From the IMG/VR virus record IMGVR_UViG_2531839584_000010: a DNA stretch of 10,473 bases. One strand, given 5' to 3'. Shown piece after piece: positions 1 to 10,473 of the stretch. Under the pieces are notes generated by a model. The model was not told where the DNA came from. It was given only the letters and a program-made list of their open reading frames with translations, and did not search any database. Position 1 is the first letter of the stretch. Every line of letters begins with the position of its first letter. Made by a program: the position numbers and the translations under genes. This DNA comes from a virus. Lineage: Duplodnaviria; Heunggongvirae; Uroviricota; Caudoviricetes.

Positions 1-1
1 T

Positions 2-100
2 TTCCTGAAACGGGATATCATCAAAGCCATGAACAAAGCAGCCGCGCTGGATGAACTGATACCGGGGTTGCTGAGTGAATATATCGAACAGTCAGGTTAA
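2..100 (+). CDS. nu1: Terminase small subunit Nu1, C-terminal 32 codons (gene starts upstream of the window)
   Basis: Reading from position 2 gives FLKRDIIKAMNKAAALDELIPGLLSEYIEQSG then TAA at 98-100, which matches the lambda Nu1 C-terminus as I recall it. It overlaps the A start by 26 nt, as in lambda. Confidence 0.7.
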   Translation, partial: FLKRDIIKAMNKAAALDELIPGLLSEYIEQSG

Positions 101-1990
101 CAGGCTGCGGCATTTTGTCCGCGCCGGGCTTCGCTCACTGTTCAGGCCGGAGCCACAGACCGCCGTTGAATGGGCGGATGCTAATTACTATCTCCCGAAA
201 GAATCCGCATACCAGGAAGGGCGCTGGGAAACACTGCCCTTTCAGCGGACCATCATGAATGCGATGGGCAGCGACTACATCCGTGAGGTGAATGTGGTGA
301 AGTCTGCCCGTGTCGGTTATTCCAAAATGCTGCTGGGTGTTTATGCCTACTTTATAGAGCATAAGCAGCGCAACACCCTTATCTGGTTGCCGACGGATGG
401 TGATGCCGAGAACTTTATGAAAACCCACGTTGAGCCGACTATTCGTGATATTCCGTCGCTGCTGGCGCTGGCCCCGTGGTATGGCAAAAAGCACCGGGAT
501 AACACGCTCACCATGAAGCGTTTCACTAATGGGCGTGGCTTCTGGTGCCTGGGCGGTAAAGCGGCAAAAAACTACCGTGAAAAGTCGGTGGATGTGGCGG
601 GTTATGATGAACTTGCTGCTTTTGATGATGATATTGAACAGGAAGGCTCTCCGACGTTCCTGGGCGATAAGCGTATTGAAGGCTCTGTCTGGCCAAAGTC
701 CATCCGTGGCTCCACGCCCAAAGTGAGAGGCACCTGCCAGATTGAGCGTGCAGCCAGTGAATCCCCGCATTTTATGCGTTTTCATGTTGCCTGCCCGCAC
801 TGCGGGGAGGAGCAGTACCTTAAATTTGGCGATAAAGAGACGCCGTTTGGCCTCAAATGGACGCCGGATGATCCCTCCAGCGTGTTTTATCTCTGCGAAC
901 ATAATGCCTGCGTCATCCGCCAGCAGGAGCTGGACTTCACTGATGCCCGTTATATCTGCGAAAAGACCGGGATCTGGACCCGTGATGGCATTCTCTGGTT
1001 TTCGTCATCCGGTGAAGAGATTGAGCCGCCGGACAGCGTGACCTTTCACATCTGGACGGCGTACAGCCCGTTCACCACCTGGGTGCAGATTGTCAAAGAC
1101 TGGATGAAGACGAAAGGGGATACGGGAAAACGTAAAACCTTCGTGAACACCACGCTCGGTGAGACGTGGGAAGCGAAAATCGGCGAACGTCCGGATGCTG
1201 AAGTGATGGCAGAGCGGAAAGAGTATTATTCAGCGCCCGTTCCTGACCGTGTGGCTTACCTGACCGCCGGTATCGACTCCCAGCTGGACCGCTACGAAAT
1301 GCGCGTATGGGGATGGGGGCCGGGTGAGGAAAGCTGGCTGATTGACCGGCAGATTATTATGGGCCGCCACGACGATGAACAGACGCTGCTGCGTGTGGAT
1401 GAGGCCATCAATAAAACCTATACCCGCCGGAATGGTGCAGAAATGTCGATATCCCGTATCTGCTGGGATACTGGCGGGATTGACCCGACCATTGTGTATG
1501 AACGCTCGAAAAAGCATGGGCTGTTCCGGGTGATCCCCATTAAAGGGGCATCCGTCTACGGAAGCCGTGGCCAGCATGCCACGTAAGCGAAACAAAAACG
1601 GGGTTTACCTTACCGAAATGGTACGGATACCGCGAAAGAGCAGATTTATAACCGCTTCACACTGACGCCGGAAGGGGATGAACCGCTTCCCGGTGCCGTT
1701 CACTTCCCGAATAACCCGGATATTTTTGATCTACCGAAGCGCAGCACTGACTGCTGAAGAGCAGGTCGAAAAATGGGTGGATGGCAGGAAAAAAATACTG
1801 TGGGACAGCAAAAAGCGACGCAATGAGGCCTCGACTGCTTCGTTTATGCGCTGGCGGCGCTGCGCATCAGTATTTCCCGCTGGCAGCTGGATCTCAGTGC
1901 CTGCTGGCGAGCCTGCAGGAAGAGGATGTGCACAACCAACAAGAAAACACTGGCAGATTACGCCCGTGCCTTATCCGAGAGGATGAATGA
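75..1990 (+). pseudogene. A: Terminase large subunit gpA; first 503 codons intact (75-1586, GTG start), C-terminal ~140 codons split across all three frames
   Basis: ORF 75-1586 (MNISNSQVNRLRHFVRAGL...) matches lambda gpA over its full 503 aa. The frame is lost near 1562 (GASVYG then SRGQHAT-stop). The remaining gpA motifs appear out of frame: EGDEPLPGAVHFPNNPDIFDL in frame 0 at 1671-1733, LTAEEQVEKWVDGRKKILWDSKKRRNEA in ORF 1678-1986, LLASLQEED in ORF 1781-1990. The last fragment stops at TGA 1988-1990. Confidence 0.9.
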
Positions 1991-2188
1991 CGCGACAGGA
2001 AGAACTTGCCGCTGCCCGTGCGGCACTGCATGACCTGATGACAGGAAACGGGTGGCAACGTACAGAAAGACGGACGGCGAGTGGAGTTTACGCCACTTCC
2101 GTGTCTGACCTGAAAAAATAATTGCGAGCTGGAAGTGCAGACCGGCATGACACAGCGACGCAGGGGACCTGCAGGATTTTATGTATGA
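1987..2188 (+). pseudogene. W: Head completion / head-tail joining protein gpW, frameshifted
   Basis: ATG 1987 overlaps the A stop as ATGA. It reads [20 protein letters not shown], then the frame is lost ([24 protein letters not shown]-stop). The W C-terminal coding sequence (gtgcagaccggcatgacacagcgacgcaggggacctgcaggattttatgtatga) is still present, ending at TGA 2186-2188. Confidence 0.7.
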
Positions 2189-8925: not shown

Positions 8926-8938
8926 TCCGGGAGTCAGG

Positions 8939-9360
8939 ATGTTCCTGAAAACCGAATCATTTGAACATAACGGTGTGACCGTCACGCTTTCTGAACTGTC
9001 AGCCCTGCAGCGTATTGAGCATCTCGCCCTGATGAAACGGCAGGCAGAACAGGCGGAGTCAGACAGCAACCGGAAGTTTACTGTGGAAGACGCCATCAGA
9101 ACCGGCGCGTTTCTGGTGGCGATGTCCCTGTGGCATAACCATCCGAGAAGACAAAGCTGCCTTCCATGAATGAAGCCGTTAAACAGATTGAGCAGGAAGT
9201 GCTTACCACCTGGCCCACGGAGGCAATTTCTCATGCTGAAAACGTGGTGTACCGGCTGTCCGGTATGTATGAGTTTGTGGTGAATGATGCTCCTGAACAG
9301 ACAGAGGACGCCGGGCCTGCAGAGCCTGTTTCTGCGGGAAAGTGTTCGATGGTGAGCTGA
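8939..9360 (+). pseudogene. G: Tail assembly chaperone gpG, net single-base frame loss near 9140-9165
   Basis: ATG 8939 reads [69 protein letters not shown], then RRQSCLP-stop at 9169. The G C-terminus resumes in another frame in ORF 9166-9360 ([64 protein letters not shown]). Confidence 0.8.
9336..9342 (+). promoter_or_regulatory. -1 programmed ribosomal frameshift slippery heptamer G GGA AAG (G to G-T)
   Basis: GGGAAAG at 9336-9342 is phased as G|GGA|AAG in the G C-terminal frame. The -1 frame is open from 9342 to 9776 and encodes T-like sequence. This is the canonical lambda G/GT recoding arrangement. Confidence 0.8.
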
Positions 9361-9776
9361 GTTTTGCCCTGAAACTGGCGCGAGAGATGGGGCGACCCGA
9401 CTGGCGTGCCATGCTTGCCGGGATGTCATCCACGGAGTATGCCGACTGGCACCGCTTTTACAGTACCCATTATTTTCATGATGTTCTGCTGGATATGCAC
9501 TTTTCCGGGCTGACGTACACCGTGCTCAGCCTGTTTTTCAGCGATCCGGATATGCATCCGCTGGATTTCAGTCTGCTGAACCGGCGTGAGGCTGACGAAG
9601 AGCCTGAAGATGATGTGCTGATGCAGAAAGCGGCAGGGCTTGCCGGAGGCGTCCGCTTTGGCCCGGACGGGAATGAAGTTATCCCCGCTTCCCCGGATGT
9701 GGCGGACATGACGGAGGATGACGTAATGCTGATGACAGTATCAGAAGGGATCGCAGGAGGAGTCCGGTATGGCTGA
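9342..9776 (+). CDS. T: T-frame extension of the G-T tail assembly chaperone fusion (reached by -1 frameshift, not an independent gene), frame intact
   Basis: ORF 9342-9776 (.FDGELSFALKLAREMGRPDWRAMLAGMSSTEYADWHRFYSTHYFHDVLLDMHFSGLTYTVLSLFFSDPDMHPLDFSLLNRREADEEPEDDVLMQKAAGLAGGVRFGPDGNEVIPASPDVADMTEDDVMLMTVSEGIAGGVRYG). Stop TGA 9774-9776 overlaps the H start. Confidence 0.85.
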   Translation: MFDGELSFALKLAREMGRPDWRAMLAGMSSTEYADWHRFYSTHYFHDVLLDMHFSGLTYTVLSLFFSDPDMHPLDFSLLNRREADEEPEDDVLMQKAAGLAGGVRFGPDGNEVIPASPDVADMTEDDVMLMTVSEGIAGGVRYG

Positions 9777-10473
9777 ACCGGTAGGCGATCTGGTCGTTGA
9801 TTTGAGTCTGGATGCGGCCAGATTTGACGAGCAGATGGCCAGAGTCAGGCGTCATTTTTCCGGTACGGAAAGTGATGCGAAAAAAACAGCGGCAGTCGTT
9901 GAACAGTCGCTGAGCCGACAGGCGCTGGCTGCACAGAAAGCGGGGATTTCCGTCGGGCAGTACAAAGCCGCCATGCGTATGCTGCCTGCACAGTTCACCG
10001 ACGTGGCCACGCAGCTTGCAGGCGGGCAAAGTCCGTGGCTGATCCTGCTGCAACAGGGGGGGCAGGTTAAGGACTCCTTCGGCGGGATGATCCCCATGTT
10101 CAGGGGGCTTGCCGGTGCGTTCACCCTGCCGATGGTGGGGGCCACCTCGCTGGCGGTAGCGACCGGTGCGCTGGCGTATGCCTGGTATCAGGGCAACTCA
10201 ACCCTGTCCGATTTCAACAAAACGCTGGTCCTTTCCGGCAATCAGGCGGGACTGACGGCAGATCGTATGCTGGTCCTGTCCAGAGCCGGGCAGGCGGCAG
10301 GGCTGACGTTTAACCAGACCAGCGAGTCACTGACGGCGCTGGTGAATGCCGGTGTGCGTGGTGGTGAGCAGTTTGAGGCGATCAGCCAGAGTGTGGCGCG
10401 TTTCTCCTCTGCATCCGGCGTGGAGGTGGACAAGGTCGCTGAAGCCTTCGGGAAGCTGACCACAGACCCGACG
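9769..10473 (+). CDS. H: Tail tape measure protein gpH, N-terminal 235 codons (continues beyond the window)
   Basis: ATG 9769 is preceded by AGGAGGAG. The frame is open to the window end, 705 nt: MAEPVGDLVVDLSLDAARFDEQMARVRRHFSGTESDAKKTAAVVEQSLSRQALAAQKAGISVGQYKAAMRMLPAQFTDVATQLAGGQSPWLILLQQGGQVKDSFGGMIPMFRGLAGAFTLPMVGATSLAVATGALAYAWYQGNSTLSDFNKT... Confidence 0.9.
   Translation, partial: MAEPVGDLVVDLSLDAARFDEQMARVRRHFSGTESDAKKTAAVVEQSLSRQALAAQKAGISVGQYKAAMRMLPAQFTDVATQLAGGQSPWLILLQQGGQVKDSFGGMIPMFRGLAGAFTLPMVGATSLAVATGALAYAWYQGNSTLSDFNKTLVLSGNQAGLTADRMLVLSRAGQAAGLTFNQTSESLTALVNAGVRGGEQFEAISQSVARFSSASGVEVDKVAEAFGKLTTDPT

Follow-up and report, generated by a model that had tools for sequence, protein, structure and literature searches.

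A frameshift-riddled lambda-type contig of Escherichia coli 180200 as a probable consensus of two collapsed prophage copies

Introduction

The cryptic lambdoid prophages of E. coli K-12 include DLP12, Rac and Qin, and natural decay of such elements involves large deletions, IS insertions and mixed indels that are unrelated to polymorphic sites. Disrupted genes in a draft genome can also be set against what is known of assembly. Collapsed repeats, with discordances at the differences between the copies, are a described signature of mis-assembly (Phillippy, Schatz & Pop 2008, Genome Biol 9:R55; PMC2397507), and the consensus step of Celera Assembler is described as picking the highest-scoring confirmed allele within variant windows, each flanked by 11 or more invariant columns (Levy et al. 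2007, PLoS Biol 5:e254; PMC1964779).

Here we analyze a stretch of 10,473 nucleotides from a tailed-phage record (hereafter the window), in which blocks of frameshifted genes alternate with blocks that are perfectly in frame. Our results indicate that it is not the product of prophage decay, random read error or planted perturbation. It is very probably an assembly artefact, namely a collapsed two-copy prophage repeat whose consensus lacks the columns at which the copies disagree.

Results

The window is, base for base, the whole of the GenBank WGS contig APXC01000069.1 (10473 bp; draft assembly GCA_000356305.2). The contig came up in an exact-protein look-up, and an 83-mer chosen across a junction drew no match in IMG/VR. 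Its source, named via the protein record ENA72556.1, is E. coli 180200, an ETEC isolate from Bangladesh that was sequenced at IGS. Mapping of annotated relatives places a lambda-type head-tail module on the plus strand over the full contig (1-10473), in the collinear order Nu1 (3' end), A, W, B, C/Nu3, D, E, FI, FII, Z, U, V, G, T and H (5' part). The assignment to this module is supported by matches to Kati, HK630 and others that cover 100% of the window with 96.8-97.5% identity; for phage Kati and ~80 other phages the identity is 97.5%. Ten of the 14 genes are out of frame (A, W, B, C/Nu3, D, E, FII, V and G, as well as FI locally), while Z (7226-7804), U (7801-8196), T (9342-9776) and the 5' part of H (from 9769) are free of frame damage, and the G-T slippery site GGGAAAG at 9336 is intact. 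Frameshifted ORFs of the contig have been deposited in NCBI nr under the name of E. coli 180200 (ENA72556.1, ENA72565.1 and ENA72570.1); the first, a frameshift-truncated protein of 503 aa, is exactly the window's translation. Since these truncated proteins are in NCBI nr and the public record has 10473 bp, the sequence already lacked the bases when it was deposited. The suggestion of a deliberately perturbed sequence, made in a preliminary description drawn from the letters alone, is refuted by the same identity with a public contig and its proteins.

Global alignment of the window with Kati gave 184 substitutions and 95 deletion events (134 nt) but 0 insertions, and the shortfall relative to HK630 is 137 nt, in agreement with the deletion bias and the shortening of about 137 nt noted in that description. 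All deletions lie within 1564-3469, 3857-3985, 4710-4775, 5128-5329, 5668-7112 and 8406-9145. These intervals coincide within a few nucleotides with the damaged blocks that had been delimited from grouped frame breaks, except that the block given as 5670-7215, although damaged, contains a deletion-free stretch at 6412-6762. An even spread of indels, named beforehand as the outcome that would overturn the block pattern, is ruled out, as the observed clustering exceeds that of all 20,000 of 20,000 uniform simulations. The longest event-free gap is 1564 nt (simulated mean 563, maximum 1460), and counts in 250-nt bins have a variance/mean ratio of 2.99, as against 0.98 in the simulations (maximum 2.21).

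Two checks proposed at the outset concerned the nature of the damage. Only indels, and not substitutions, rise in the damaged blocks, the substitution density being 1.67 per 100 nt there and 1.83 in the intact blocks. Nor do the indels sit preferentially in homopolymers, where they are in fact depleted: 55 of 72 single-nucleotide deletions fall at run length 1 (41.7 expected) and only 7 of 72 in runs of 3 or more. Instead, the deletions favor naturally polymorphic positions. When four unrelated references were used, polymorphism was seen at 64 of the 137 deleted columns and at 129 of the 4679 that were retained within the same blocks (odds ratio 31, p = 5e-56). The window has no IS elements and no large deletions, and its shortening is absent from the full-length matches listed among 5426 complete RefSeq E. 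coli genomes, all of these matches spanning ~10607 nt. The marks expected of natural decay, i.e. indels of both signs and of varied size, IS elements, raised substitutions and positions independent of polymorphism, are lacking in the window.

The finished ETEC genomes ETEC-2264 and 90-9280, the closest finished relatives of strain 180200, each carry two intact lambdoid prophages, here called X and Y, and so two near-identical copies of the module. The X/Y repeat is at least 13.3 kb long, is 97.6% identical and contains the entire window. In ETEC-2264 the window maps to X 9501-20107, inside the repeat at X 9199-22512+, so that the contig stands alone within a longer repeat and has no unique flanks, as is expected of a collapsed repeat. 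The same three genomes contain the best matches of the whole window and of the damaged block 1562-3480, though these lie at separate loci, and the three finished Bangladeshi ETEC genomes have the prophage pair in one chromosome.

The deletions coincide with the differences between these copies, as is likewise expected of collapse. A column at which X and Y differ is contained in 87 of the 95 deletion events, and 2 more have one no more than 3 nt away. We applied an exact-string test to 129 clusters of differing columns, of which 71 are dropped from the window, 35 agree with X, 16 agree with Y and 7 fit none of these. The 71 dropped clusters comprise 109 columns (one cluster has 15), and over them the window reproduces, as an exact string, the X/Y alignment minus its discordant columns; everywhere else, the window follows one copy or the two copies do not differ. 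Loss of whole spans, including the concordant bases between SNPs, as would occur if an aligner rendered close mismatches as block gaps, was considered and rejected, because only discordant columns are removed and the concordant bases between close differing sites are retained. The multi-nucleotide "deletions" and many of the "private substitutions" in a MAFFT alignment are alignment artefacts. The prophage pair of 90-9280 reproduces the exact-string outcome with the same allele sets and no improvement over ETEC-2264. Dropped and resolved states are strongly grouped along the window, forming 19 runs where 60.4 are expected (z = -7.7).

The following blocks, all on the plus strand, can be distinguished. 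The window is intact from 1 to 1561 (end of Nu1, first three quarters of A); the proxy copies are near-identical there, and all 4 sites at which they differ are resolved. The first drop block (1562-3470: the 3' quarter of A, W and most of B) has lost 35 of 36 clusters, or 47 columns, the exception at 2798 carrying the Y allele. In the intact block 3471-3856 (3' end of B, start of C), 8 differing sites are resolved, their alleles forming a short X/Y/X mosaic. The second drop block (3857-3985, 5' region of C) includes a 6-column cluster at 3895-3905 that fits dropping under an alternative gapped alignment. It is followed by the intact C protease region (3986-4709), with the X allele at 10 of 10 differing sites, and by the third drop block (4710-4776, C/Nu3), from which 3 columns were removed. 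The intact block 4777-5127 (3' end of C/Nu3, start of D) follows Y at 4852-4909 and then X; divergence between the copies is dense there, reaching ~22% per 200 nt, with a 12-nt indel in addition.

The fourth drop block (5128-5330, D) includes a 5-column cluster at 5171, while sites 5213-5280 are resolved to X. The next intact block (5331-5667: 3' end of D, start of E) follows Y at 5375-5391 and then X, at an X/Y divergence of ~16%. In the fifth drop block (5668-6411), within the major capsid gene E, all 16 of 16 clusters are dropped (32 columns), including the 15-column cluster at 5749-5785. The deletion-free stretch 6412-6762 (end of E, FI) follows X through dense divergence and a 3-nt indel, and all 8 of 8 clusters (10 columns) are dropped again in the sixth block (6763-7112: 3' end of FI, FII). 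The intact block 7113-8405 (end of FII, Z, U, start of V) resembles Y up to 8227 and X at 8266-8377. The seventh drop block (8406-9145: V, 5' region of G) is partly explained by the columns that differ between the ETEC-2264 copies. Six deletion events at 8670-9145 fall where these proxy copies are identical, which implies that the source strain's own copies must be different at these sites; 4 of the 6 sites are polymorphic among other phages. In the last, intact block (9146-10473: 3' end of G, the slippery site, T, 5' part of H), the proxy copies do not differ, and the window departs from both by substitutions only, being closer to Kati.

Local divergence between X and Y alone was rejected as the determinant of dropping or resolution, as a cluster of 15 mismatches in ~45 nt is dropped and the sparse sites at 4033-4623 are resolved. 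A rule by which a third copy gives a 2:1 majority has a mixed record in ETEC-2264, which has 3 copies of block 7216-8405 and only 2 of block 3986-4709.

Discussion

We suggest that two lambdoid prophages are most likely present in strain 180200, as they are in ETEC-2264 and 90-9280, and that their head-tail modules share ~97.6% identity across a region longer than 13 kb. We infer from these related genomes that both copies would reside in strain 180200 itself, at double read depth. The draft assembler would then have merged the two into one stand-alone contig of 10.5 kb. Where the copies agree, the consensus would be correct; where they are co-aligned and disagree, nothing would be emitted for the column. 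If no base is emitted at a discordant column, each SNP between the copies becomes a 1-nt deletion. Where a single copy contributed or a majority allele existed, the consensus would remain in frame and follow that copy. The block pattern would represent an alternation between stretches in which the two copies were tied and stretches with one copy or with identical copies. We presume that the input to the consensus was a small number of long sequences (unitigs or super-reads, tied 1:1) rather than hundreds of reads. As a candidate sub-mechanism, a tie may have been turned into a gap, or into a symbol that was later stripped, possibly before submission. Block 3986-4709, with the X allele at 10 sparse sites, would need the extra assumption that the copies of 180200 are identical there. 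The model predicts the same identity at 7113-8200, and it predicts short additional contigs for the segments of dense divergence (about 4850-5125, 5375-5665, 6460-6760 and 8210-8380). A literature search for the accession and for consensus deletions at collapsed SNPs returned no description of this exact artefact.

The preliminary interpretation is thus partly supported and can be sharpened. Its proposal of a regional consensus or polishing artefact was right in kind, the artefact being specifically a two-copy consensus with the discordant columns omitted. Its other proposal, a mosaic with segments of a degraded relative, fails on the equal substitution density of the two block types and on the fact that both candidate parents are intact in finished genomes.

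The same consensus artefact could also have arisen from a mixed sample, such as co-cultured strains, or a prophage together with a related induced phage or contaminant. Paralogs and a mixture are indistinguishable from sequence alone, heterogeneous samples can also give correlated discordances (Phillippy et al., PMC2397507), and Sahl et al. saw phylogenetically distinct ETEC isolates within some patients. However, nothing requires a mixture, and the pair found in one chromosome of three finished Bangladeshi ETEC genomes has differences that reproduce the 109 dropped columns exactly, which makes this source of the two copies improbable. It is hardly conceivable that the bases were lost after deposition, through the stripping of ambiguity codes or Ns by the pipeline that made the window. 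Stripping IUPAC codes would indeed cause per-column loss at discordant columns only, but the public record itself has 10473 bp and the proteins in NCBI nr are already frameshift-truncated. Random platform error left unpolished in some regions, whether from homopolymers, long-read deletions or failed short-read polishing in repeats, resembles the window in that unpolished long-read repeats can show regionally clustered, deletion-only damage. This explanation is nevertheless very hard to believe when the deletions avoid homopolymers and hit inter-copy SNP columns with an odds ratio of 31 under an exact, deterministic per-column rule. A companion study from the sequencing centre moreover reports Illumina HiSeq data at >200x, which for strain 180200 is a lead only.

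The deposited sequence does contain the frame breaks, E. coli often harbors cryptic lambdoid prophages, and lambdoid phages have mosaic genomes. A real DNA molecule deserves to be weighed, in the form of a prophage degraded by natural pseudogenization or of a degraded segment recombined into a functional phage. Against it stand the 0 insertions, the lack of IS elements and large deletions, and damaged blocks without a raised substitution rate. The shortening is also missing from every full-length match listed among the 5426 complete E. coli genomes, and the contig stands alone inside a longer repeat. Above all, the deletions match the differences between two intact prophages column by column, which random mutation cannot yield, and we regard a real decayed molecule as extremely improbable. 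We give scarcely more than nominal credence to a real recombinant prophage in which heteroduplex processing removed one base per mismatch in the segments exchanged between co-resident prophages; if that reading were true, segments of hybrid DNA would give rise to blocks of single-base deletions.

Under the preferred reading, a collapse of two prophage copies, it is not likely that a prophage with these frameshifts exists, and the biological interest of the contig is low. Its practical value lies in database hygiene. Collapsed paralogous prophages in older drafts can pass for pseudogene-rich or "decaying" prophages, and scrambled fragments such as ENA72556.1, ENA72565.1 and ENA72570.1 can lead to errors in pseudogene counts, in the output of prophage-intactness callers and in pan-genome analyses. 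Drafts from the same pipeline may share the artefact wherever two prophages have modules that are 97-98% identical. The signature to look for is a short stand-alone contig with deletion-only frameshifts exactly at inter-copy SNPs in all-or-none blocks, and such contigs should be filtered or down-weighted in genome scans.

Compared with known systems, the window shares with lambda, HK630, Kati, phiSTEC1575-Stx2k and the ETEC-2264 prophages the gene order, ~97-98% nucleotide identity over its full length and an intact G-T slippery site; unlike those modules, it lacks 134 bases at inter-copy polymorphic columns and has 10 of its 14 genes out of frame. With DLP12, Rac and Qin it has in common a lambdoid module with disrupted genes, but not the large deletions, IS insertions and mixed indels. 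As in the collapse described in PMC2397507, near-identical copies are joined, disagreements fall exactly at the differences between copies and the contig lies inside the repeat. Here, however, the columns are left out instead of being called as a single allele, by which SNPs become frameshifts, and it is the consensus, not the read pile-up, that is compared. A companion paper provides a lead that Celera Assembler was used for strain 180200. The resolved blocks resemble the output described for that assembler (PMC1964779) in forming a short-range haplotype composite, for example X, Y, Y, Y, X at 3601-3773, whereas at least 109 columns of the window vanish instead of being resolved to the best allele.

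Results

The window is a lambda-type head-tail morphogenesis module. Phages Kati, phiSTEC1575-Stx2k and HK630 and ~80 other phage records match it in full (100% coverage) with 96.8-97.5% identity, and the relatives' annotation gives the gene order Nu1 (3' end), A, W, B, C/Nu3, D, E, FI, FII, Z, U, V, G, T and H (5' part). The matching stretch is ~10,607-10,610 nt in every relative, so that the window is short by 134-137 nt; the preliminary description had estimated 137 nt, which is the deficit against HK630. A global MAFFT alignment with Kati gave 184 substitutions, 95 deletion events (134 nt) and 0 insertions. 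The deletion events are confined to 1564-3469, 3857-3985, 4710-4775, 5128-5329, 5668-7112 and 8406-9145. These blocks coincide with the segments in which clustered frame breaks had been described, the only refinement being that 6412-6762 is without deletions. When the genes are mapped to the window, breaks fall in A, W, B, C/Nu3, D, E, FI (locally), FII, V and G, and Z, U, T and the 5' part of H are unbroken. G carries one dropped base at 9145, upstream of the heptamer of the lambda G-T programmed -1 frameshift (9336-9342). The slippery heptamer, GGGAAAG, is kept at 9336 and T (9342-9776) is in frame; this natural frameshift site is to be kept apart from the artefactual ones.

An even spread of deletions was considered, and the events proved clustered instead, which is not by chance: the longest stretches free of events measure 1564, 1328 and 1294 nt, where the simulated maximum gap averages 563 nt, and neither the observed maximum gap nor the variance/mean ratio of 2.99 was reached in any of 20,000 uniform simulations. 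Only deletions rise in the damaged blocks (2.05 per 100 nt, against 0 in intact blocks); substitutions relative to Kati stand at 1.67 and 1.83 per 100 nt, respectively, and this equal density speaks against a diverged, degraded donor. Nor do the deletions prefer homopolymers, since 55 of 72 single-base deletions lie at run length 1 (41.7 expected), which speaks against platform indel error; the bases deleted mirror the overall base composition.

The identity of a deleted base varied with the reference used (G in one, A in another). With four references compared, polymorphism affects 64 of the 137 deleted columns but just 129 of the 4679 columns retained within those blocks (odds ratio 31, p = 5e-56). 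Because the deletions target naturally polymorphic columns, random error, random decay and random synthetic perturbation cannot be the cause.

Among 5426 complete E. coli genomes, the best whole-window matches are in ETEC-2264, LR882978 and 90-9280, and the window's shortening is absent from the full-length matches listed. The best matches to the damaged block 1562-3480 lie in the same three genomes at another chromosomal locus. ETEC-2264 has two intact lambdoid prophages: X lies at 1.28 Mb, and Y occupies the DLP12 position at 0.61 Mb. Their alignment extends over at least 13.3 kb with 97.6% identity, and the entire window falls inside that repeat. A three-way alignment places a column at which X and Y differ inside 87 of the 95 deletion events, and 2 more lie within 3 nt of one; the remaining 6 are all at 8670-9145. 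Y at the DLP12 position (ybcN, ninE, ybcO, rusA, ylcG, quuD, a porin gene, essD, rrrD, rzpD and nohD; locus L005 1-7500, ETEC-2264 0.60-0.61 Mb) also carries iss (increased serum survival), and it keeps a complete head-tail module, unlike the K-12 remnant.

The 293 columns at which X and Y differ form 129 clusters, parted by at least 12 concordant columns, and each was tested for which version stands verbatim in the window. All discordant columns are removed in 71 clusters (109 columns), including one of 15 columns (5749-5785) and one of 5 columns (5171); the X version stands in 35 (122 columns) and the Y version in 16 (36 columns). For example, where X reads AAAACGCCCACC and Y reads AAAATGTCCACC, the window reads AAAAGCCACC: only the two discordant columns are gone, and the intervening concordant G is still present. 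Apparent multi-nucleotide deletions are alignment artefacts. No version matches in 7 clusters (26 columns), which either switch state internally (5128, 5668), fit the drop rule if the gaps are aligned in another way (3895-3905) or require true parents that differ from ETEC-2264 (8323, 8634-8715). The prophage pair of 90-9280, used as proxies, returned the same 71 clusters. Dropped and resolved clusters alternate in pronounced blocks along the window, with 19 runs where 60.4 would be expected (z = -7.7).

When the frameshift-truncated terminase ORF (75-1586) was searched for as an exact match, the one record retrieved was contig APXC01000069.1 (10,473 nt) of NCBI draft assembly GCA_000356305.2. 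The window is identical to the whole of this stand-alone contig. Scrambled ORFs stand in NCBI nr under 'Escherichia coli 180200' as ENA72556.1 (75-1586, 'phage terminase large subunit family protein', 503 aa), ENA72565.1 (3962-4762, 'clp protease family protein', 266 aa) and ENA72570.1 (6356-6856, 'DNA packaging FI family protein', 166 aa). The deletions are thus part of the deposited record, and ORFs made or cut by artefactual frameshifts pass there as real proteins. ETEC-2264 and 90-9280 originate from Bangladesh, as does strain 180200, an ETEC isolate sequenced at IGS. Dense substitution-only clusters part the window from both ETEC-2264 copies at 9153-9165 (G) and 10239-10380 (H), with ~20 changes in 50 nt at 10332-10380, so the 180200 prophages are not identical to those of the proxy strain; Kati differs from the window by just 6 substitutions over 9166-10473. 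The clusters in H, the tape-measure gene, look like a natural mosaic boundary.

Co-resident prophages also appear to exchange sequence. From window ~6411-6462 onward, the FI, FII, Z, U and V gene sets are swapped between the two prophages of ETEC-2264 (L004/L007 for X, L005 for Y) relative to those of 90-9280 (L008 and L009), and in 90-9280 each of the two major capsid (E) proteins is a hybrid. The pattern suggests either that the two prophages underwent a reciprocal crossover within gene E, an event that would rearrange the intervening chromosome segment, or that one 'complete' assembly contains a mis-join. Both ETEC-2264 prophages encode identical G, T and H proteins (WP_000479153, WP_000459457, WP_001703004), and their DNA is almost without differences at window ~8800-10473 and beyond, suggesting that their tail-assembly ends have been homogenised, consistent with gene conversion.

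Discussion

We conclude that the contig is very probably a mis-assembled, collapsed two-copy repeat and not a biological feature. Of the explanations first offered, a consensus artefact confined to some regions was right in kind; a mosaic with a degraded relative is not supported, given the equal substitution densities and the intact state of both candidate parents, and deliberate perturbation fails on a public contig whose drops fall on naturally polymorphic columns. Real prophage decay is contradicted by the lack of insertions, the even substitution density and the placement of deletions on discordant or polymorphic columns, as random platform error is by the homopolymer test and the same targeting. 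Downstream stripping of ambiguity codes is contradicted too, the 10,473-nt record and its truncated proteins having already been deposited. A mixed sample rather than paralogues would yield the same consensus, but it is less parsimonious, given that three finished genomes hold exactly this prophage pair in one chromosome.

Under the collapsed-repeat explanation, a correct consensus would arise where the copies agree (1-1561, 9146-10473), and a column would be dropped, with no base emitted, where they were co-aligned but discordant (seven drop blocks). Where a single copy contributed, the consensus would follow it in frame, as in the densely divergent, indel-bearing stretches 4850-5125, 5375-5667, 6460-6760 and 8210-8380. 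A third copy may have provided a majority in 7113-8405, a block of which ETEC-2264 holds three copies. At 3986-4709, where ETEC-2264 has only two, the window carries the X allele at 10 sparse discordant sites; the simplest assumption is that both 180200 copies are identical there. Co-resident prophages clearly exchange sequence. The 180200 copies probably differ at 8670-9145, since other phages vary at 4 of the 6 drops for which the proxies agree, and here the window departs from both proxies. The value of the contig lies in its forensic signature and in a warning for database hygiene.

The joining of reads or unitigs from near-identical copies into one unit that disagrees at inter-copy differences is a classic mis-assembly (PMC2397507). 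The unusual part is a consensus that emits nothing at a discordant column, a step of which we found no description in the literature. A dropped column may have been called as a gap, or its ambiguity symbol stripped before submission, and the sequence cannot tell which. Block behaviour is all-or-none, an exact tie among ~400 reads has only p≈0.04 per site, and 15 mismatches in ~45 nt were still co-aligned. We infer from this that the inputs to the consensus were a few long sequences in a 1:1 tie (unitigs, super-reads or merged contigs) rather than hundreds of 100-nt reads, or else that it followed a deterministic 'no clear majority, emit nothing' rule. A lead to the software comes from the same centre's companion paper on 208 ETEC isolates, some with numeric names, which were sequenced by HiSeq2000 paired-end at >200x and assembled with Celera Assembler, keeping contigs of at least 500 bp (PMC4462620); 180200 might have been assembled likewise. 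The published logic of Celera Assembler, which takes the best-scoring allele per variant window (PMC1964779), fits the short X/Y mosaic of the resolved blocks but misfits the drops.
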